A DNA stretch of 64,000 bases from a virus. Taxonomy: Duplodnaviria; Caudoviricetes. Both the position numbers and the translations under genes were made by a program. Below are positions 19,309-64,000 of the stretch, piece by piece. Where the stretch lies: IMG/VR virus record IMGVR_UViG_3300010998_000026, positions 12,142 to 76,141 of that record. The stretch is one strand, 5' to 3'. The first letter of the stretch is position 1, and each line of letters opens with the position of its first letter. The notes under the pieces are model-generated. The model saw only the letters and a program-made list of their open reading frames with translations. It ran no database searches and was not told where the DNA came from.

Positions 19309-19777
19309 TTGGAATTACGAGCGCTATCGTACCCGCGATTTACTTCTTGAATATGACATAAATATTATGCCTCCTCATCCTCGCGCGGGCGGCCTTGCAA
19401 TGGTATATCCTTGGGGTTCCTCAATACTTGATAATGTAGTGGATATGTCAATTCCTTCAAGACCACATACTACTACACTTTCAATGATATACCCTTGGGA
19501 AAATACTTCTCTAAATATTTTAATGCAACAATTATTCTTACTCGCCGTGCAAAGTGGTTTTGAAGGCGATATGGATGATTTCAAAAATCTTTTCACTTCG
19601 TATGTAGGTACTCGTAGTATTATGTTTGCAAAATATTCCGATTTCCCAGAAGAAGGAATTGCTTCAAAATTATATTTTGACTTAGAAGAAAAAATACTAT
19701 ATTACTGGGACAATGACTACATACCAGTGAACGCAATGATTATTGCTAATACAATACTTAATGGTGGTGAAGCATAA
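19286..19777 (+). CDS. Hypothetical structural protein
   Basis: Intact ORF with overlapping start/stop; FPEEGIASKLY motif. Confidence 0.7.
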   Translation: MAMKKGIDWNYERYRTRDLLLEYDINIMPPHPRAGGLAMVYPWGSSILDNVVDMSIPSRPHTTTLSMIYPWENTSLNILMQQLFLLAVQSGFEGDMDDFKNLFTSYVGTRSIMFAKYSDFPEEGIASKLYFDLEEKILYYWDNDYIPVNAMIIANTILNGGEA

Positions 19778-20487
19778 TGGCAACTAATAGTGTAAAAGTA
19801 AGATTACAAATTAGGCACGACGAAGCCGCCGATTGGATTACACGGAATCCAGTATTAGCACAAGGTGAATATGGTTTAGAAACTAACACATTTCTAATAA
19901 AAGTAGGGGATGGTGTAACCGATTGGTTGCACCTCCCTTATTTAAATAAACTTGATGCTTCTTATTTTCAACATCACAGTGATGGCACAATATCATTTAG
20001 TGATAATTTTATGAATACTATCGCGGCACTTGAAGCCGCGGCGGGGCAAGCAATTACGCAATTAGTAGTTACTGAGCCACCAGTAAATGATACTGATGTA
20101 CCAAATAAAAAATATGTTGACGACGCGATTCGTAATGCAGGTCATTTAAAGCGTGAAGTGGTACAATACCTTCCTGCCGCATCAGTGGCCGATCCAAATA
20201 CTTTATATATGGTTCTCGCCCAATCCGGAGACCATTATGAAGAATATATGGCTATTAACGGTAATTGGGATATGGTAGGAAGCACAGGCGACGGTGGAAG
20301 TGGCGGCGGAATGTTTACACTTGAAGTCGCAACCGATGCACGCCTTGGTGGTGTAAGGTCTTCTTCCGCGGCAGATGCTATTTTAGTAAATCCAGAAACC
20401 GGTATTATGACATTAAATCAAGTTTCTACTACGAAATTATATGTTCCAGTCGGAGATACATTTATTATATATGGCGGCAGTGCTTAA
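19777..20487 (+). CDS. Tail fibre protein with Mtd-N/hyaluronidase-N-like domain
   Basis: RHDEAADWITRNPVLAQGEYGLETNTFLIKVGDGVTDWLHLPY. Confidence 0.75.
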   Translation: MATNSVKVRLQIRHDEAADWITRNPVLAQGEYGLETNTFLIKVGDGVTDWLHLPYLNKLDASYFQHHSDGTISFSDNFMNTIAALEAAAGQAITQLVVTEPPVNDTDVPNKKYVDDAIRNAGHLKREVVQYLPAASVADPNTLYMVLAQSGDHYEEYMAINGNWDMVGSTGDGGSGGGMFTLEVATDARLGGVRSSSAADAILVNPETGIMTLNQVSTTKLYVPVGDTFIIYGGSA

Positions 20488-40205: not shown

Positions 40206-40281
40206 CGCAGATAGGGCAAACGGTTAAGCCGCGGCGCTCATAACGCTTGAGGAAATGGTCCAACTCCATTATCTGCGACCA
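40206..40281 (+). tRNA. tRNA-Met(CAT), atypical
   Basis: CTCATAA loop; cgcagat/atctgcg acceptor; CCA. Confidence 0.7.
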
Positions 40282-44986: not shown

Positions 44987-45526
44987 ATGAGTGATGTACG
45001 TTTAAAGATTTTACCCCCTTGGACTATTGTAATTCGTAAACTTGAAGCTCTATTTGATGGTGACCCTCAGATTGCTTTCAATTGTGATTTTTCTGGTAGT
45101 CATCCTACTGTAATACTTGCTTGCAATAATGGCGATAAGGTTGCGGCTTTACTACAGATTCTTCCAGAAGAAGTTAATTTTGGTAATATTTCTCTAAAGG
45201 TTATTATTGATGGCACACCTAGTAATCGCGCTTTTACAAGTAAGGTTGAACTATTTGATACAGCTTTTAGCGGCAATCCTGCTTATGCTTATTCTGTATG
45301 TCCTGCAGAAGAAGGTTATATGTGGATTGGTACAACTTATGTAGTATTTAATAATTGCGTGGTACAATTTGCCGCAGATAATCTGAATGATTGCCACGGT
45401 ATTATTAGTACCCTATACGAAACTATTGCTAATGAACTTCTTACTGGCCCAGCAACAGCAGGTGTATTTTATAATACTAATGTTGAACGTGCTGGTCTTG
45501 GTATGCCATTAGGAGAGTGGCCCTAA
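44987..45526 (+). CDS. Conserved hypothetical phage protein
   Basis: Intact 179-aa ORF, RBS GAGGT, no TAG. Confidence 0.8.
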   Translation: MSDVRLKILPPWTIVIRKLEALFDGDPQIAFNCDFSGSHPTVILACNNGDKVAALLQILPEEVNFGNISLKVIIDGTPSNRAFTSKVELFDTAFSGNPAYAYSVCPAEEGYMWIGTTYVVFNNCVVQFAADNLNDCHGIISTLYETIANELLTGPATAGVFYNTNVERAGLGMPLGEWP

Positions 45527-45548
45527 TTAACGCGGCGAAAGCCGCTAT

Positions 45549-45623
45549 CGAGCATTAGCACAGTTGGTTTAGTGCGCGCGCCTGATAAGCGCGAGATGCT
45601 TCGTTCGAATCGAAGATGCTCGA
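45549..45623 (+). tRNA. tRNA-Ile(GAT)
   Basis: cgcgc-CTGATAA-gcgcg. Confidence 0.9.
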
Positions 45624-45718
45624 CTACCTTTATTAAAGATACTCTAGCTTATTGAGTTAAGTAGGTAAACTACTTTCTCGTTATAACGGAAACTAAAATA
45701 AAAAAAGGAAGAATAACT

Positions 45719-45955
45719 ATGACTGAGACTCAAATAAAAGAAAAAAGGAAGAATGGAAGAGATGCGCCACAAGACAGAGTCCCACGTGACGAATTACTAT
45801 ATCCCACGAAGGAGACATCATTCGATCCTCCTGTTCGCTCTATACTTGATCGTGTGCCTAATTCGAGTAAGCCAGTAAAGTATAAGTGCCTAGACCCTGA
45901 TTATGTTAAATACAAGCGTAGTATTATAACTGGAACTCAAATAAAAGAAGAATAA
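45719..45955 (+). CDS. Possible small hypothetical protein flanked by imperfect direct repeats
   Basis: 78-aa ORF; weak RBS. Confidence 0.35.
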   Translation: MTETQIKEKRKNGRDAPQDRVPRDELLYPTKETSFDPPVRSILDRVPNSSKPVKYKCLDPDYVKYKRSIITGTQIKEE

Positions 45956-46025
45956 TGCTCTCTTCTCTTTCTACCCTCGTAAGAGATCACTTTTATATCT
46001 AAACCTATTGGGTTAAGTAGGCAAT

Positions 46026-46099
46026 GCGGCATTAGTGTAGTGGTAACACCTTTGCCCTCCAAGCAAATTTCGCCCGTTCAAATCGGGTATGCCGCTCCA
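46026..46099 (+). tRNA. tRNA-Gly(TCC)
   Basis: tttgc-CCTCCAA-gcaaa (C33); TCCA end. Confidence 0.8.
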
Positions 46100-46104
46100 A
46101 GCCG

Positions 46105-46178
46105 AGATACGTCAGCAATTTTTCTTCTCAAGCGGTATTTTGAAGCACCGGGTCGGCTCCGGGAAGATAAGCGTATCT
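46105..46178 (+). ncRNA. CAGCAA-family RNA 3
   Basis: agatacgt/gcgtatct stem, TCAGCAA, internal hairpins. Confidence 0.6.
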
Positions 46179-46259
46179 AGTTTTAATAGACTTGCCCACG
46201 CCTCTTAACAATGCGTACCAGGGGAGCACGTGGCTACGACGGTTAATAGTAGCATTCAT

Positions 46260-46393
46260 GCTGGTGTGGTGGAATGGCAGACACCTCAGACACTCGGTGT
46301 CCAGTGACTTTCGCTGGGGCAGCACCAGTGCCGAGTACCATTAAAATCTGATGCTCTTTGAGCGTGCCGGTTCGAGTCCGGCCACCAGCACCA
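46260..46393 (+). tRNA. tRNA-Leu(TAA) with 49-nt insertion (46292-46340) in anticodon loop
   Basis: Removing the insert restores tcaga-CTTAAAA-tctga; long variable arm; ACCA end. Confidence 0.8.
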
Positions 46394-46400
46394 TTTTTGA

Positions 46401-46823
46401 AAATAGGTACTTTCGTAACGAATCAAGGATATGGTAAGAGTGCTGTTTGATGAGCTGTACCAAAAGACTTGGGCGTCAAAAGGCAGAAGTTAAATGGTAT
46501 TGAAAACCAGCCTATTGTTGGCTTGGGTAAGAGGACCCTGTAAGTAGTTGATAGTGGAACAATAACCTATGTAAAATAATTAGTGCTACGAAGCCAATCA
46601 GCTAAGTCCTTGTGGAGATGTACGCTGAAACAAGAGCAATCAAAAATTCCGAGGAAAAATCCTAAGACAGTGTTGAGATTGCTCACGCGGGAAAAGCAGC
46701 AGTAGTAAATGGAGTTAGATGAACAGCTAATTATTGTGTAAATAGGTGCAGAATGATGAATCTGAGGTAAGGTGAAATCCCTATGCCCGCAATGTTAAAT
46801 GGAATTTGACGAACAGCCTATTT
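46401..46823 (+). ncRNA. Candidate ~420-nt structured ncRNA between two tRNA-Leu genes
   Basis: Terminal pairing aaatagg/cctattt; no long ORF. Confidence 0.5.
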
Positions 46824-46829
46824 ACGTAT

Positions 46830-46909
46830 GGCCCGCTGGCGAAATTGGTTTACGCAGCGCACTCAAAATGCGTGCCTTCGGGTTCTCAGTTCAAATCTGA
46901 GGCGGGCTA
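46830..46909 (+). tRNA. tRNA-Leu(CAA)
   Basis: gcgca-CTCAAAA-tgcgt; variable arm. Confidence 0.85.
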
Positions 46910-46913
46910 CTAT

Positions 46914-46986
46914 GTCCAATTGGCGCAACGGCAGACGCGCATGGCTAAGGACCATGTTTTTGAAGGTTCAAATCCTTTATTGGACA
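46914..46986 (+). tRNA. tRNA-Leu(AAG), short variable loop
   Basis: catgg-CTAAGGA-ccatg. Confidence 0.75.
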
Positions 46987-46990
46987 TTAT

Positions 46991-47019
46991 TTGACTTTTC
47001 TCAAAATCTATGATATAAT
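46991..47019 (+). promoter_or_regulatory. sigma70-type promoter
   Basis: TTGACT-17-TATAAT. Confidence 0.8.
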
Positions 47020-47050
47020 AAATATATAAAAGGAAGAAAGAGGTAAAAGT

Positions 47051-47365
47051 ATGTCCTGCGTCTGTGAAAAAAATACTCCTCGTAATGGCCCATATTATCC
47101 ATTAGGTATTAAAAAACGTATTAAATATGATAAAATTGTAAATTATCATTATGAAGGTCATGATGGGCATGGTGGCTATACTTGTGATTATATTCCAGTT
47201 GAAACAGAAGCAGAAGTTTATCTAAGAGTAGATTATCCAATACTATATGAAACAAATGGTGGCGGATATAATAAAAGATTATTTCATTGTCCACTATGTG
47301 GACGTTATTTTCCGCCAGTAAGTCAATGGGAAAAAGAACAGGAAAAATATGAATTAAATACTTGA
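47051..47365 (+). CDS. Hypothetical Zn-ribbon protein
   Basis: CVC..HCPLCGR. Confidence 0.75.
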   Translation: MSCVCEKNTPRNGPYYPLGIKKRIKYDKIVNYHYEGHDGHGGYTCDYIPVETEAEVYLRVDYPILYETNGGGYNKRLFHCPLCGRYFPPVSQWEKEQEKYELNT

Positions 47366-47390
47366 CTTTCTTCCAAATTTATGTTATAAT
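47362..47390 (+). promoter_or_regulatory. Promoter of the large ncRNA
   Basis: TTGACT-17-TATAAT. Confidence 0.8.
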
Positions 47391-47415
47391 AAATATGTAA
47401 GAAAGGGAAACAAAG

Positions 47416-48003
47416 AACTCTCTGTTTAGCAATTACGAACCAAGTGAAGATGTGTTAGCCACACAGCTTGGGCTACCTGGATAACATCGCAGACCTTGAT
47501 GGGATACTTTCAAGTATGCGACGCGAAACTAGTAATAGTTAGCGATAAGGGAGAAACTCCAAATGTTAAGGGTAGGCGCCGATTACTTCGCTTGTAAATG
47601 CACGATTCCTCACGGCGGCACAATAGAAAGCTAGGTTAAGAGCCAGGCCGAATCCAGATAAGGTGTTGGGGTGGTAGCCAATACAACCTCTGGAAATAAC
47701 CACAAGTCGCTACTGTCGGTGAAAGTCAGAAATGGCATATAAGTGAGGTTTACGGTTGGAGTAGCTCAAGACAGCAAATGAATATGTTATTAAAAAGAAG
47801 CGTTTTAATTCTTTTCATATTGCTGAATGGCTTGGGTGAAACTTGAAGGTAGACAATCCTTCCTATTCTCGGCGCGAAAGCGCGGCTATTAGATGGTATG
47901 AGGTCGCTACTCATGCTACAGCCTAATGGTCAATAGTAGCATAATATACAAGAAGAAGATAATTGGTATGGCGAAGGTCACGCTAATTGTTAAACAGAGA
48001 GTT
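47416..48003 (+). ncRNA. Probable ROOL large ornate RNA (~590 nt)
   Basis: 20-bp terminal helix aactctctgtttagcaatta/taattgttaaacagagagtt; size; GAAGGTAGACAATCCTTC, GGTCGCTAC and GGCGAAGGTC segments recalled as ROOL-like; tRNA-array context. Confidence 0.7.
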
Positions 48004-48026
48004 TTCTATACAGAAAGGAGTATTAA

Positions 48027-48365
48027 ATGAATTATATTATTAATCCAATGTGGTTCTACTGGCTAAATGTTTGTGATGGTTTTAAAATATTTTTAATTGT
48101 ATTTTCAGTGCTATATGGTATTAGTATTATAGTTACATTAATTGAATTCGTAGTAGAAAATAATAAATTCCCAAAATGGAAAATTATTTTTTACATAATT
48201 CCTATAATTTTAATTTTATTAGCAATTTTTATTCCTAATAAAACTACGTTAATTGAGATGCAGGTTGCAGAATTAGCTACTAAATCTAATATTGATTATA
48301 CTATTGAATCAATTAGAGAAATTATTAATTATTTGTTAGAAACAATTAATAATTTTAATAGTTGA
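48027..48365 (+). CDS. Membrane protein (2 TM)
   Basis: MNYIINPMWFYWL, hydrophobic segments, IFIPNKTTL. Confidence 0.8.
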   Translation: MNYIINPMWFYWLNVCDGFKIFLIVFSVLYGISIIVTLIEFVVENNKFPKWKIIFYIIPIILILLAIFIPNKTTLIEMQVAELATKSNIDYTIESIREIINYLLETINNFNS

Positions 48366-48474: not shown

Positions 48475-48804
48475 ATGAAAATTTACATTTACGTAGATGA
48501 TATTCGTGATGATGATACTTATTATAATATGAATCTTTATCCCGAGTGGCGTCTAATCATCTGTCGCGATTATAATCAGACTGTACAAGTTCTCACTCAA
48601 CATCTTACAGATGAAATTTTCATTGACCTTGACCATGATCTTGGTTTTGATGATGATAATTATGAATATTCTGGTTATGATATTTGTAAGTTTATTATTC
48701 AACACCGAATTCCACTTGCCGGTTTTCACATCCATAGTATGAATCCTGTTGGTGTACAGAATATGCGGCAACTACTTACCCATTATGGATATAAGGAATA
48801 TTAA
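48475..48804 (+). CDS. Cyclic-phosphate-processing receiver (cREC) domain protein
   Basis: IYVDDIR, IDLDHDLG, SGYDICKFI, IHSMNPVG..NM. Confidence 0.8.
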   Translation: MKIYIYVDDIRDDDTYYNMNLYPEWRLIICRDYNQTVQVLTQHLTDEIFIDLDHDLGFDDDNYEYSGYDICKFIIQHRIPLAGFHIHSMNPVGVQNMRQLLTHYGYKEY

Positions 48805-49142: not shown

Positions 49143-49237
49143 AGCCCCTTAGCTCAATTGGTAGAGCACCGGTCTCTAAAACCGTGATATGCCTCTGAAG
49201 CAGGTTGTTCTGGGTTCGACTCCCAGAGGGGTTGCCA
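49143..49237 (+). tRNA. Amber suppressor tRNA (CTA), probably Gln
   Basis: cggt-CTCTAAA-accg; agcccct/aggggtt, G73, CCA; long variable arm. Confidence 0.85.
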
Positions 49238-55883: not shown

Positions 55884-56153
55884 ATGAGAGACACCGCGGA
55901 AAAACGCCATAATGATTGGAAAAAAGCAATTCGTAAACGAAATCTTGATCGTGCGCTTGATACGGGTACCTATCATCATGACTGGTATGATAATTTACAT
56001 CAATATTCAAAAAATAAAATTCATTGTTCTTGTCCTCTATGTGCTGAAAAAACAAATAATAAACATATTAAAAATTCTTGGCTTCCTAATACCAATTGGA
56101 GCATGAGAGATAGAAAACAAATTGATAAACTTAATTATCAAGAAGAGGAATAA
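55884..56153 (+). CDS. Basic hypothetical protein
   Basis: YSKNKIHCSCPLC. Confidence 0.75.
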   Translation: MRDTAEKRHNDWKKAIRKRNLDRALDTGTYHHDWYDNLHQYSKNKIHCSCPLCAEKTNNKHIKNSWLPNTNWSMRDRKQIDKLNYQEEE

Positions 56154-56154
56154 A

Positions 56155-56637
56155 ATGAAATCTACTTTATATATTTTAATTGGTGCCCCCGGGTGCGGCA
56201 AGTCAACTTTCGCGGCAAATTTTTCTAATAATGGACATATTGTTTGGGTATCTCGTGACACTATTCGATTCCGTTATCTTGATAAAAATCCAAATGCGCA
56301 TTATTTTGATTTTGAAAATGAAGTTTATAATGATTTTATTAATGAAATTGTTACCGCTTTAAAAAATAACTATAATGCAGTTGCTGATGCTACTCATTTA
56401 AATACTGCGGCCCGTAAGAAACTTACAAATGCGATTGATAAATATTATACAGATTATAATATTATTTATATTGTATTTCTTGCCTCCGCGGAAGTATGCA
56501 TTGAACATAATAAAAATCGTGTTGGGCATGCAAATGTTCCAGAAGATGTAATTCGTGATATGCGCGCGAAACTTACTATTCCAGATAAAGAAGATTCACG
56601 CGAAATAGGTAAGTGGTTTATTGAAGGAGAAGTTTAA
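56155..56637 (+). CDS. AAA_33 polynucleotide kinase (T4 Pnk kinase-like)
   Basis: GAPGCGKST, SRDTIR, VADATHL..AAR, R..VPEDVI. Confidence 0.85.
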   Translation: MKSTLYILIGAPGCGKSTFAANFSNNGHIVWVSRDTIRFRYLDKNPNAHYFDFENEVYNDFINEIVTALKNNYNAVADATHLNTAARKKLTNAIDKYYTDYNIIYIVFLASAEVCIEHNKNRVGHANVPEDVIRDMRAKLTIPDKEDSREIGKWFIEGEV

Positions 56638-57236
56638 TGGGCGAAATTTTTCTCACCAGCGACACTCATTTCGCGCATCAGCCCATGTTCCTATGGGAAC
56701 CACGTGGTTTTCAAAGTGTAGAAGAAATGAATGAAGCTATCATTGAAAGATGGAATAAGGTGGTAAAGCCAGATGATACAGTAATTCATCTTGGTGATAT
56801 TATGCTTACAAATAATAAAATTGGTCTAGAATGTCTAAAGAGTCTTAATGGAACAATTAATATCATTTGGGGCAACCATGATTCGCCATCGCGGCAAATG
56901 CTCATTCATACAGAGTGCCCAAATATTATTACACTTGGATATGCACATATGTTTAAATATGGAAAATATTCTATTTATCTTTCGCATTATCCAACATTAA
57001 CTGCAAATTATGATGATAAACATTTTTCACAGCATGTAATTAATATGCACGGGCACACTCATCAACAAAAAAATTGGCTTCAGCCAGATAATCCATTTAT
57101 GTACCATGTTGGTATGGATAGTCATAATTGTACACCAGTGCATATTGATGAAGCAATTACCGATATTCGAAATAGATGGAATGAAATGCAAAAATTTGGA
57201 GTTCCTATGAAAGAACTTTACAATTACCCACTATAA
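56637..57236 (+). CDS. Calcineurin-like metallophosphoesterase
   Basis: SDTHFAH, HLGD, GNHD, HYP, HGHTH, HVGMD. Confidence 0.9.
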   Translation: MGEIFLTSDTHFAHQPMFLWEPRGFQSVEEMNEAIIERWNKVVKPDDTVIHLGDIMLTNNKIGLECLKSLNGTINIIWGNHDSPSRQMLIHTECPNIITLGYAHMFKYGKYSIYLSHYPTLTANYDDKHFSQHVINMHGHTHQQKNWLQPDNPFMYHVGMDSHNCTPVHIDEAITDIRNRWNEMQKFGVPMKELYNYPL

Positions 57237-63010: not shown

Positions 63011-64000
63011 ATGCCTTATTGTGGATATATTGTTGAAGTAAAAGAACTTCGTAAACATTCTAATGCTGATAGACTGCAAATTGCTACCTTCTTTGGTAAT
63101 GATACTATTGTAAGTCTTGATACTCATATTGGAGATAAGGGAATTTATTTCCCTGTAGACGGTCAACTCTCCGAGCGTTATTGCGCTGTAAATGACCTAG
63201 TGCGGCGTAAAGATGAAAATGGTAAACCTTGTGGCGGTTATCTTGACCCCGATAAGCGCAACATTAAGGCACTAAAGCTTCGCGGCGAAAAATCTGACGG
63301 TCTTTTTATGCCTTTGACTTCTCTTGCTGATTTTTGTAAGATTTCTGATCTAAAGGTTGGAGATACTATTGATACTGTTAATGGTGAACTAATTTGTCAG
63401 AAATATATTCCTCGCGCGAATACTTATTCTCGCAGTCACGGAGCTAATGCCACTAAAAAGGCAAAAGCTAATATTGCGCCTACCTTCTACGAACATGTAG
63501 ATACTGCGCAGCTCGCTTATAATCTAGATGTATTTAAGCCTGGTGACCTAGTACAACTCACTCTAAAAATGCACGGAACTTCAGGGCGTACTGGCTATTT
63601 ACCTTTACTTCATACTAAGCGCACTTGGCTTGATAAATTGTTCCATCGTCATGGTAAGGACTATATGGAATATGGCTATATTACTGGTACTCGTCGCGTG
63701 GTACTTGATGGAATACGCAATGGCGGTTTCTATGAAAGTGATGATTTCCGTCATGCAATGGCAGCAAAGTTTGAAGGAAAACTTCATAAGGGTGAAGTAG
63801 TATATTACGAAATTGTAGGTTTCCAGGGCCCAGATGGAGCACCTATTATGAGCCAGGTTGCCAATAACAAAGTAAAAGATCCAGAATTTACTAAGCTATA
63901 TGGAGACACTACTACTTTTGCATATGGCTGTGATCAGCATGGACCTTGGGAAGAAACTGCAATAGAAGCACCTTGTTGTGAAGTATATGTTTATCGTATG
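63011..64000 (+). CDS. ATP-dependent RNA ligase with N-terminal tRNA-binding OB domain (DRB0094/Rnl5-like), 3' partial
   Basis: HSNADRLQI, KLRGEKSDGL, HVDTAQL, motif I TLKMHGTS, YYEIVG. Confidence 0.85.
   Translation, partial: MPYCGYIVEVKELRKHSNADRLQIATFFGNDTIVSLDTHIGDKGIYFPVDGQLSERYCAVNDLVRRKDENGKPCGGYLDPDKRNIKALKLRGEKSDGLFMPLTSLADFCKISDLKVGDTIDTVNGELICQKYIPRANTYSRSHGANATKKAKANIAPTFYEHVDTAQLAYNLDVFKPGDLVQLTLKMHGTSGRTGYLPLLHTKRTWLDKLFHRHGKDYMEYGYITGTRRVVLDGIRNGGFYESDDFRHAMAAKFEGKLHKGEVVYYEIVGFQGPDGAPIMSQVANNKVKDPEFTKLYGDTTTFAYGCDQHGPWEETAIEAPCCEVYVYRM

Follow-up and report, generated by a model that had tools for sequence, protein, structure and literature searches.

How a tRNA could be obtained from a gene whose anticodon loop is interrupted by 49 nucleotides (nt) is the question raised by a tRNA-Leu(UAA) gene at positions 46260-46393 of the viral DNA analyzed here. 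This DNA, 64,000 nt in length and referred to as the window, is the final 64 kb of a 76-kb IMG/VR virus record (IMGVR_UViG_3300010998_000026; Duplodnaviria, Caudoviricetes) with an estimated completeness of 43%. To our knowledge, tRNA introns of bacteria and phages have been thought to be self-splicing group I introns, and protein-dependent tRNA splicing has been regarded as archaeal or eukaryotic. Here, we found that the 49 nt are a precisely delimited tRNA mimic, that related inserts occur in many tRNA genes of related phages and that they have moved between tRNA species, and we discuss how such inserts might be removed.

A precisely delimited insert in the anticodon loop

The gene was missed both by ARAGORN with default settings and by Rfam at gathering threshold when the whole window was scanned. 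With introns allowed, ARAGORN called tRNA-Leu(taa) at 46260-46393 with a 49-nt intron at 32/33, and the Rfam tRNA model, applied to 46200-46450, matched 46260-46390 at 39.3 bits (gathering threshold 29; E = 3.6e-07), placing 55 nt where the consensus has 6 loop positions. For comparison, we collected 80 loci from related viral contigs, which were recovered with the neighboring open reading frame (ORF) 44987-45526 and which together with the window make 81 loci (individual loci are designated by L and a number); many of these contigs belong to genomes of 160-190 kb. When introns were permitted, ARAGORN reported 1274 tRNAs, spread over 76 of these 81 loci. L013 and L014 have uninterrupted tRNA-Leu(taa) genes with the loop CTTAAAA, to which the joined exons of the window gene showed 90% identity, and the 28-nt spliced junction was found exactly, with zero shift, in an uninterrupted gene of L009. 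Because these uninterrupted orthologues fix the junction, the insert must be exactly 46292-46340, between C32 and U33, which is where an earlier note on this DNA, made from the sequence alone, had placed it. A junction shifted by one base was rejected, as it would give A32, a base present in no orthologue. Apart from these 49 intervening nt, the tRNA-Leu(UAA) gene is intact. According to ARAGORN labels, 57 tRNA(taa) calls were made in the loci: 41 were uninterrupted, 4 had a 49-nt insert (the window, L027, L028 and L044) and 12 had inserts of 198-801 nt.

The insert is a reduced tRNA mimic

In its anatomy, the insert mimics a tRNA in reduced form: its acceptor-like stem of 7 base pairs (bp) stacks on a T-like stem of 5 bp closed by a 7-nt loop, and ACCA follows. 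The T-like arm abuts the 3' strand of the outer stem, just as the T arm abuts the acceptor stem. Two features of minihelix substrates of bacterial RNase P are present: a 12-bp coaxial acceptor/T stack (7 + 5) with a 7-nt T-like loop, and a 3' RCCA beyond the stem (ACCA at 46337-46340). The outer stem, the inner hairpin and the ACCA end described in the earlier note are all there, the inner hairpin being better read as a T arm. Its description of the insert as a tRNA-like minihelix, resembling an acceptor stem with CCA, agrees with our analysis, and throughout the family the ends of the inserts coincide with tRNA +1 and CCA.

Folding of the single sequence was not significant, either in z score (-1.38) or in comparison with shuffled sequences (26 of 200 folded as well). 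For the whole precursor, z was -2.33 and the minimum-energy fold, which lacked the cloverleaf, was uninformative. Since the single-sequence fold is not significant, the case beyond chance is a comparative one. A covariance model of the family (R1) detected the insert at 44.2 bits, a score to be read with the fact that the insert belonged to the R1 training set. A second model from which all Leu-type inserts had been left out (R2) matched 46292-46340 from end to end (19.1 bits; E = 4.5e-4), which was the best match in 3 kb with filters off. It counts against this assignment that the insert was absent from the R2 output when the whole window was scanned with default filters; as R2 found it only with the filters off, the independent support from the model is moderate.

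A family of inserts in related phages

Short introns called by ARAGORN across the loci (38-125 nt) gave 49 distinct candidate sequences, 38 of which could be parsed as at least 6 of 7 acceptor pairs plus at least 4 of 5 T-stem pairs. When copies were counted, these well-formed inserts occupied 45 tRNA genes in 36 of the 81 loci. Their sizes ranged from 43-nt minihelices to 117-nt units that still had a D arm and extra hairpins. The first base of the insert was G in 29 of the 38, the exon base preceding it was U in 21 and G in 11, the tail was NCCA in 21, and the loop occurred in 20 variants. In 19 of 50 distinct interrupted genes, the junction could be fixed by an exact 28-mer of an uninterrupted gene. 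With junctions corrected, the inserts extended from the 5' base of the stem to the tail. Of these 19 genes, 11 had a tail ending in CCA, 6 one ending in CAA or AA, and 2 one ending in A or AT. Insertion sites ranged from 32/33 to 36/37, with 34/35 the most common.

It should be noted that the host tRNA is frequently misnamed by ARAGORN as a result of a junction displaced by one to three bases. On the basis of the 28-mers, 'Thr-ggt' was corrected to Asn(GUU), 'Pro-tgg' of L008 and L025 to Ile(UAU), 'Leu-caa' of L006 to Trp(CCA), and 'Thr-tgt' of L019, 'Arg-tct' of L022 and 'Trp-cca' of L009 to Lys(UUU). In the tRNA-Gln(UUG) gene of L006 (15464-15618), the 83-nt insert is itself called by ARAGORN as a tRNA with anticodon CTA, so that at least some inserts look like releasable tRNAs; it is possible that a suppressor tRNA is nested within this tRNA-Gln(UUG). 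Separately, the suppressor tRNA(CTA) genes of seven relatives have anticodon-loop inserts of 173-177 nt (L004 11407-11672, L007 1106-1368, L011 12771-13039, L015 3839-4107, L026 9787-10055, L034 8637-8902 and L044 15799-16065), with no group I match in the three of these loci that were scanned with Rfam (L004, L011 and L044).

Outside the related contigs, nothing among GenBank phages matched 45500-48200, and the interrupted gene itself matched only through its 3' exon and T arm. The 190-nt nested-tRNA gene of L002 had no match there either, and no example from a cultured phage was found. A pattern scan of IMG/VR for the Asn-type insert yielded three loci, two of them on already known contigs; this narrow pattern gave no sign of spread beyond the present phage clade.

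Selection on the insert and on the exons

The comparative evidence came from an alignment of 18 short inserts, in which 97.7% of the cells of the 12 helix pairs were standard pairs, compared with a mean of 67.4% after shuffling; none of 500 shuffles reached the observed value. Changes on both sides were seen at 11 of the 12 pairs, and pairing fell to 30-40% when partners were slid by one to three columns. The equivalents of G53, A57 and C61 were invariant across the 18 inserts and that of C56 was nearly so. Only four positions were conserved family-wide, all of them T-arm positions.

A pattern built from the T-like arm and the 3' junction of the window insert identified 10 further IMG/VR loci, 7 of them on contigs new to our set. 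Together with the window, the Leu-type inserts are represented by nine distinct gene sequences with five clearly different insert variants. All seven pairs of the acceptor-like stem had changed on both sides among the nine genes, and the T-like arm, the CAGT of the linker and the ACCA were invariant. The earlier note had proposed to look for the insert in homologues and had regarded a unique, unconserved insert as the mark of a pseudogene; the homologues exist, and in them the structure is conserved and its helices co-vary.

The exons appeared to be under constraint as well. In the nine insert-bearing Leu genes, the five tRNA helices formed by the exons were 100% paired, with eight pairs changed on both sides, some of which may predate the insert if it entered alleles that had already diverged. 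The 76-kb contig has no Leu(UAA) gene other than the interrupted one, and TTA accounts for 638 of the 1058 Leu codons in the long ORFs of the window. Similarly, in G001, a complete relative of 172 kb with terminal repeats, the genes for Gln(UUG), Lys(UUU), Thr(UGU) and Leu(UAA), among 15 tRNA genes, are all interrupted and none has an uninterrupted copy.

Movement between tRNA species

The insert family has moved between tRNA species. The insert of tRNA-Ile(UAU) in L008 and that of tRNA-Lys(UUU) in L045 were identical at 41 of 47 positions, and those of Lys in L027 and Trp in L006 at 67 of 75. In addition, two Lys genes carry the same insert type at different sites, 35/36 and 36/37, and the window insert shares linker and loop motifs with a second type of Leu(UAA) insert located at 35/36 (31 of 51 identical). 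No model match lay outside anticodon loops in the window, in the 1.38 Mb of the 80 loci or in five complete genomes, a possible exception being one weak match in the 1.38 Mb (L002 9377-9425, 23.9 bits). We also considered origin from a particular free tRNA. The acceptor stems of 8 of the 38 inserts had at most one mismatch to the stem of some free tRNA in the loci, and that of the window insert was near the stem of tRNA-Arg(acg) of L067. These similarities were regarded as a weak lead only, as the T arms differ.

RNA-repair enzymes near the tRNA array

Candidate enzymes for joining the exons are encoded downstream of the gene (Table 1). The RNA ligase that the earlier note had read at 63011 is supported by its PHROG match; the same ORF had weak matches to the PHA02142 OB-fold (E = 0.0013, below the Pfam cut-off) and to Naegleria RNA ligase chains (E = 0.22). 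A DUF2828/DUF7788 protein (PHROG 'RNA-binding protein') is also encoded near the array. The RNA-repair set of G001, in which 146 ORFs of at least 90 amino acids (aa) were scanned for domains at E ≤1e-6, comprises an Rnl1-type ligase domain (RNA_lig_T4_1), a second RNA_ligase domain, a kinase, a phosphoesterase, cREC_REC and DUF2828/DUF7788, with the repair genes at L092 2767-7326 and L094 5642-11361. G001 also encodes a Thg1-like 3'-5' polymerase and PTH2. No domain of a tRNA-intron endonuclease (tRNA_int_endo, EndA) or of RtcB was found among 67 ORFs of the window and the 146 of G001, and no reverse transcriptase among the window and G001 ORFs scanned.

Table 1. Features of the interrupted tRNA-Leu(UAA) gene, its insert and nearby RNA-repair genes (window positions)
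Feature	Position	Strand	Evidence
5' exon of tRNA-Leu(UAA): acceptor 5' strand, D arm, anticodon-stem 5' strand, C32	46260..46291	+	ARAGORN, Rfam, orthologue identity
tRNA-like minihelix insert, 49 nt, between C32 and U33	46292..46340	+	Exact 28-mer junction; covariance models
Acceptor-like stem, 5' strand	46292..46298	+	7/7 pairs with 46330-46336, one G.U
Linker, 14 nt, in place of D and anticodon arms	46299..46312	+	CAGT motif, invariant in nine Leu-type genes
T-arm-like hairpin, 5-bp stem and 7-nt loop	46313..46329	+	46313-46317 pairs 5/5 with 46325-46329, one G.U
T-like 7-nt loop	46318..46324	+	
Acceptor-like stem, 3' strand	46330..46336	+	
ACCA tail: discriminator-like A plus CCA, directly followed by U33 of the exon	46337..46340	+	Invariant in nine Leu-type genes
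3' exon: U33, anticodon UAA, anticodon-stem 3' strand, variable arm, T arm, acceptor 3' strand, A73, encoded CCA	46341..46393	+	
cREC_REC (cyclic-phosphate processing receiver) ORF, inside tRNA array, RNA-repair context	48475..48801	+	PF20274, E 1.3e-17
Polynucleotide-kinase-like ORF	56122..56634	+	Pfam AAA_33, E 3.8e-21; phrog_505 polynucleotide kinase
Metallophosphoesterase ORF	56637..57233	+	Pfam Metallophos_2, E 9.1e-11; phrog_547 phosphoesterase
RNA ligase ORF, cut by contig end, candidate exon sealer	63011..64000	+	phrog_968, E 4.9e-53

How the insert might be removed

We suggest that the insert is excised by RNase P and a tRNA 3' endonuclease and that the exons are sealed by a phage RNA ligase, a scheme whose chances we judge to be about evenly balanced. 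A putative host RNase P would take the insert as a pre-tRNA and cut at 46291|46292, leaving C32 with a 3'-OH. An RNase Z/BN-type 3' endonuclease, or RNase E, would cut after CCA at 46340|46341, giving U33 a 5'-phosphate. The exon halves, held together by the helices of the outer tRNA, would then amount to a tRNA with a nicked anticodon loop, which a phage ATP-dependent RNA ligase could seal, and the excised 49-mer would leave as a free minihelix. We infer that the acceptor/T stack with RCCA is the recognition unit of RNase P and tRNA 3' endonucleases and was kept through reductive evolution; the reduction of larger inserts to the acceptor/T half would fit selection for the part that the enzymes recognize. 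Repair-dependent splicing is thus best described as a good hypothesis, not a result.

The products of RNase P and RNase Z have 3'-OH and 5'-phosphate ends, and for this reason a ligase alone would suffice. The earlier note had the phage kinase, phosphoesterase and ligase jointly rejoining the halves: all three genes are present, but the first two would be needless after cuts by RNase P and RNase Z. They probably form an end-healing pair, which would be needed only if the cuts left 5'-OH and cyclic phosphate ends.

Published properties of tRNA 3' endonucleases, in the part of the source available to us (PMC7479834), bear on the second cut in several ways. RNase Zs are described there as cutting right after the discriminator in CCA-less precursors and right after CCA in CCA-containing ones, the Thermotoga maritima enzyme as cutting after CCA, and RNase E as at times making the CCA end directly. 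The archaeal RNase Zs studied required a mature 5' end and an acceptor stem, and the D, T and anticodon arms were dispensable (PMC7479834). On the other hand, several observations weigh against the proposed scheme, the first of which comes from the same source: RNase Z of Bacillus subtilis is strongly inhibited by CCA with Mg2+ (PMC7479834). The 3' cut is the weak point, as the tails of 17 of the 38 well-formed inserts are not NCCA (AA, AC, AT, A, C, none, ACAA, GCAA or ACTA). For such tails, a simple rule that places the cut behind either CCA or the discriminator would miss the exact junction required by the orthologues. At the 5' cut site, the window has C at -1 and A at +1, where U and G are the commonest bases in the family. 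The kinase/phosphoesterase cassette is left unexplained by the RNase P/Z route.

RNA libraries provided a further line of information. Ten RNA runs contained only 5-9% of the sampled words of the region, and four of them were examined as assembled contigs at 85% likeness. No joint across 46291/46341 was present in the four contig sets, and a 170-nt contig (X7) covers 46263-46386 unspliced across both junctions with four differences, both of which would, at face value, speak against splicing. Apart from this contig, which may represent the precursor or DNA, cover of 46270-46343 was low (0-8.6). Because contigs cannot show a rare or short mature tRNA, these data neither support nor refute splicing.

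The strongest competitor, which we nevertheless consider unlikely, is healing and sealing in the manner of T4 repair: a dedicated endoribonuclease of phage or host would recognize the minihelix and cut both junctions, leaving 2',3'-cyclic phosphate and 5'-OH ends, and the kinase and phosphoesterase would heal these ends before the ligase seals them. A cassette of kinase, phosphoesterase, cREC_REC, DUF2828/DUF7788 protein and ligase does adjoin the tRNA array, with the same set in G001, and variable tail lengths would be easier to accommodate if a protein read the context of the junction rather than a fixed distance. However, we have no candidate for the endonuclease, with neither tRNA_int_endo nor RtcB among the scanned ORFs of the window and G001, and the cassette has an obvious other use against host anticodon nucleases. 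Moreover, a dedicated nuclease leaves unexplained why the inserts end exactly at tRNA +1 and CCA.

These same ends would be expected of a scar that is never spliced, that is, a mature tRNA-like RNA mis-ligated into a nuclease-cut loop and copied to DNA, or a product of recombination, in which case the interrupted gene would be dead or used otherwise, for example as a decoy. The clustering of sites after position 34, where several anticodon nucleases cut, the abundance of degenerate tails and the unspliced state of the sole RNA-library contig over the gene are consistent with such a scar. Yet the nine insert-bearing Leu genes have diverged with their exons fully paired through compensatory changes, the helices of the insert itself co-vary, and the interrupted genes are the only copies of their anticodons in the 76-kb contig (G000) and in G001. 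No reverse transcriptase was found among the G001 or window ORFs scanned. A scar is accordingly a rather improbable explanation.

Less probable still is the idea that the minihelix is the product that matters and the outer tRNA mainly a scaffold for its processing. A released CCA-ended 49-mer might, for example, serve as a primer or as a decoy that occupies enzymes or toxins with affinity for acceptor stems or CCA ends; such a role does not exclude splicing and could be an added one. RNase P recognition as such would not call for the degree of conservation seen in the linker motif and the unusual loop, which do not vary among the nine genes, and in the absence of free-standing copies the tRNA genes would be the sole source of the RNA. 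The sequence of the acceptor-like stem is nevertheless free to change completely, loops vary widely in the family, and conservation of the exons argues that the outer tRNA itself is needed. Finally, a small self-cleaving or self-splicing ribozyme is very improbable: ribozymes of about 50 nt exist, some of them phage-associated, but 46200-46450 gave no match to any ribozyme or intron family at E up to 10 (best family other than tRNA, E = 0.45), the few positions conserved in the family all belong to the T arm, and true group I introns, 198-801 nt in length and Rfam-detected in two of four scanned, occur in the same gene of relatives.

If excision by RNase P and a 3' endonuclease is accepted, a broader possibility arises, which we regard as speculative and somewhat doubtful. 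It would be a third kind of tRNA splicing, in which tRNA-mimic introns are excised by end-maturation enzymes and the exons rejoined by a phage repair ligase, and in which the reverse reaction spreads the family. In that reverse route, a host anticodon nuclease would open an anticodon loop and a mature CCA-ended minihelix would be ligated into the gap, which would explain the spread between tRNA species, the location of sites mostly after position 34 and the ends at +1 and CCA. Splicing and transposition would then be served by one machine, the phage repair system.

Relation to known systems

The closest precedent is the 'enigmatic' conserved introns in tRNAs of Lak megaphages, one of which, in tRNA-Thr(TGT), 'itself may encode a tRNA' (Devoto et al. 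2019, PMC6784885). In the accessible text of that report, phage tRNA introns are described as not previously reported. A 2026 survey found intronic tRNA sequences in 262 alternatively coded jumbo phage genomes and stated, in its accessible text, that they 'could encode another tRNA' (PMC13037316). As far as these published descriptions go, Lak phages and the present ones share a TAG-recoded animal-gut phage as the carrier, an interruption in the anticodon loop, a tRNA-like insert, alleles with and without the insert, and a predicted junction that was corrected through alignment with uninterrupted genes. The Lak and jumbo phage reports describe inserts resembling whole tRNAs and give no mechanism, a distinction drawn from their descriptions and not from intron sequences. 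In the openly readable full texts, Lak supplements excluded, we found no mechanism proposed or tested, no inserts of minihelix size and no movement between tRNAs. Unlike the Lak introns, the present case offers a 49-nt acceptor/T minihelix at 32/33 in a phage whose genome would measure about 170-190 kb, covariation, exact ends from +1 to CCA and transfer between tRNAs.

Group I introns are typically about 200 nt or more, and the group I intron of tRNA-Leu(UAA) occupies the same gene and the same loop. The inserts of 198-801 nt in relatives sit after position 34 or 35; among four long-insert Leu(UAA) genes scanned, Rfam Intron_gpI matched in L021 and L035 and was below gathering threshold in L003 and L011. 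In contrast, the window insert has 49 nt, no ribozyme core and a site at 32/33, and no Rfam intron family, RF00028 included, matched 46200-46450 at E up to 10, in line with the earlier view that it is far too short for a group I intron.

In a bulge-helix-bulge motif, each splice site lies in a 3-nt bulge, and a 4-bp helix separates the two bulges. No such motif is present here: a 7-bp helix begins directly at the 5' junction, with no 5' bulge, and the 3' junction lies 4 nt beyond the helix in a 10-nt single strand. The protein-spliced tRNA introns of archaea and eukaryotes are likewise short, not self-splicing, near the anticodon loop and variable in position, and, in the portions of the literature available to us, they require a nuclease and a ligase (EndA, RtcB or Trl1) (PMC4090602, PMC3400036). 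Unlike EndA/RtcB systems, the phages considered here showed neither domain among the window or G001 ORFs scanned.

In tRNA repair by phage T4, the tRNA is cut by PrrC, healed by Pnkp and sealed by Rnl1. There, as proposed here, a phage ligase seals the nicked anticodon loop of a folded tRNA, and G001 has an Rnl1-type domain; the T4 break is damage inflicted by the host, whereas here it would be a programmed excision of 49 nt. In MALAT1, the embedded tRNA mimic of mascRNA directs cuts by RNase P and RNase Z at +1 and at the 3' end. Unlike that eukaryotic case, the flanks here are proposed to be rejoined.

The window gene is the smallest and cleanest example of a tRNA-like phage tRNA intron, the minimal form of a kind that is known but unexplained. 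The insert family supplies what a mechanism needs, namely exact ends, the acceptor/T half only, covariation, constraint on the exons, movement and ligases nearby. If true, the proposed splicing would be a new pathway and a new use for phage RNA-repair enzymes, and the insert may be a switch that makes the tRNAs of TAG-recoded phages depend on a phage-encoded ligase. The hypothesis is directly testable on one 134-nt transcript with three enzymes.

Genomic setting and other RNAs of the region

The tRNA array lies at 39-55 kb of the window, whose G+C content is 35%, and Rfam also places a ROOL RNA there. Over the whole window, default ARAGORN gave 28 tRNA genes and Rfam at gathering threshold 29 matches; one Rfam tRNA, at 40206-40278 (43.5 bits), was absent from the ARAGORN calls with or without introns. 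For the window and G001 alike, the ORF content approximately doubled when TAG was read as a sense codon. A tRNA(CTA) gene with a long variable arm is located at 49143-49237 of the window (labeled 'Pyl' by ARAGORN). On the basis of this increase and the presence of the tRNA(CTA) gene, the phage is TAG-recoded, and the ORF lists of the window made with genetic code table 11 are therefore fragmented.

Several other features were noted in the window and its relatives. ORF 19777-20484 has an Mtd_N domain (E = 9.1e-11), as in targets of diversity-generating retroelements, with no reverse transcriptase among the window ORFs scanned. In G001, about 12 kb (~124.2-136.1 kb; L098 4214-16099) are without an ORF of at least 90 aa on either strand, even when TAG is read through. 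The tRNA region of relatives also includes a tmRNA gene (95.4 bits) and 'drum' RNAs (L004 8327-8679, L021 8603-8709 and L003 6308-6401).

The ROOL RNA, at 47416-48000 inside the tRNA array, matched its Rfam model at 317.7 bits and was also found in four of six relatives scanned (L003, L004, L035 and L044). It was deeply covered by RNA-library contigs, with two joints that go back in the sequence (47982 to 47426 and 47955 to 47426), a pattern as from tandem or circularly permuted copies. Between two tRNA-Leu genes, the segment 46394-46832 has no ORF and no Rfam match; the fold of its first module was not significant (z = -1.19). This segment is a mosaic of modules, each 90-99% conserved, in different relatives, and it was strongly covered by contigs in all four RNA libraries, one contig of 438 nt covering 46406-46840. 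It may harbor undescribed small RNAs.

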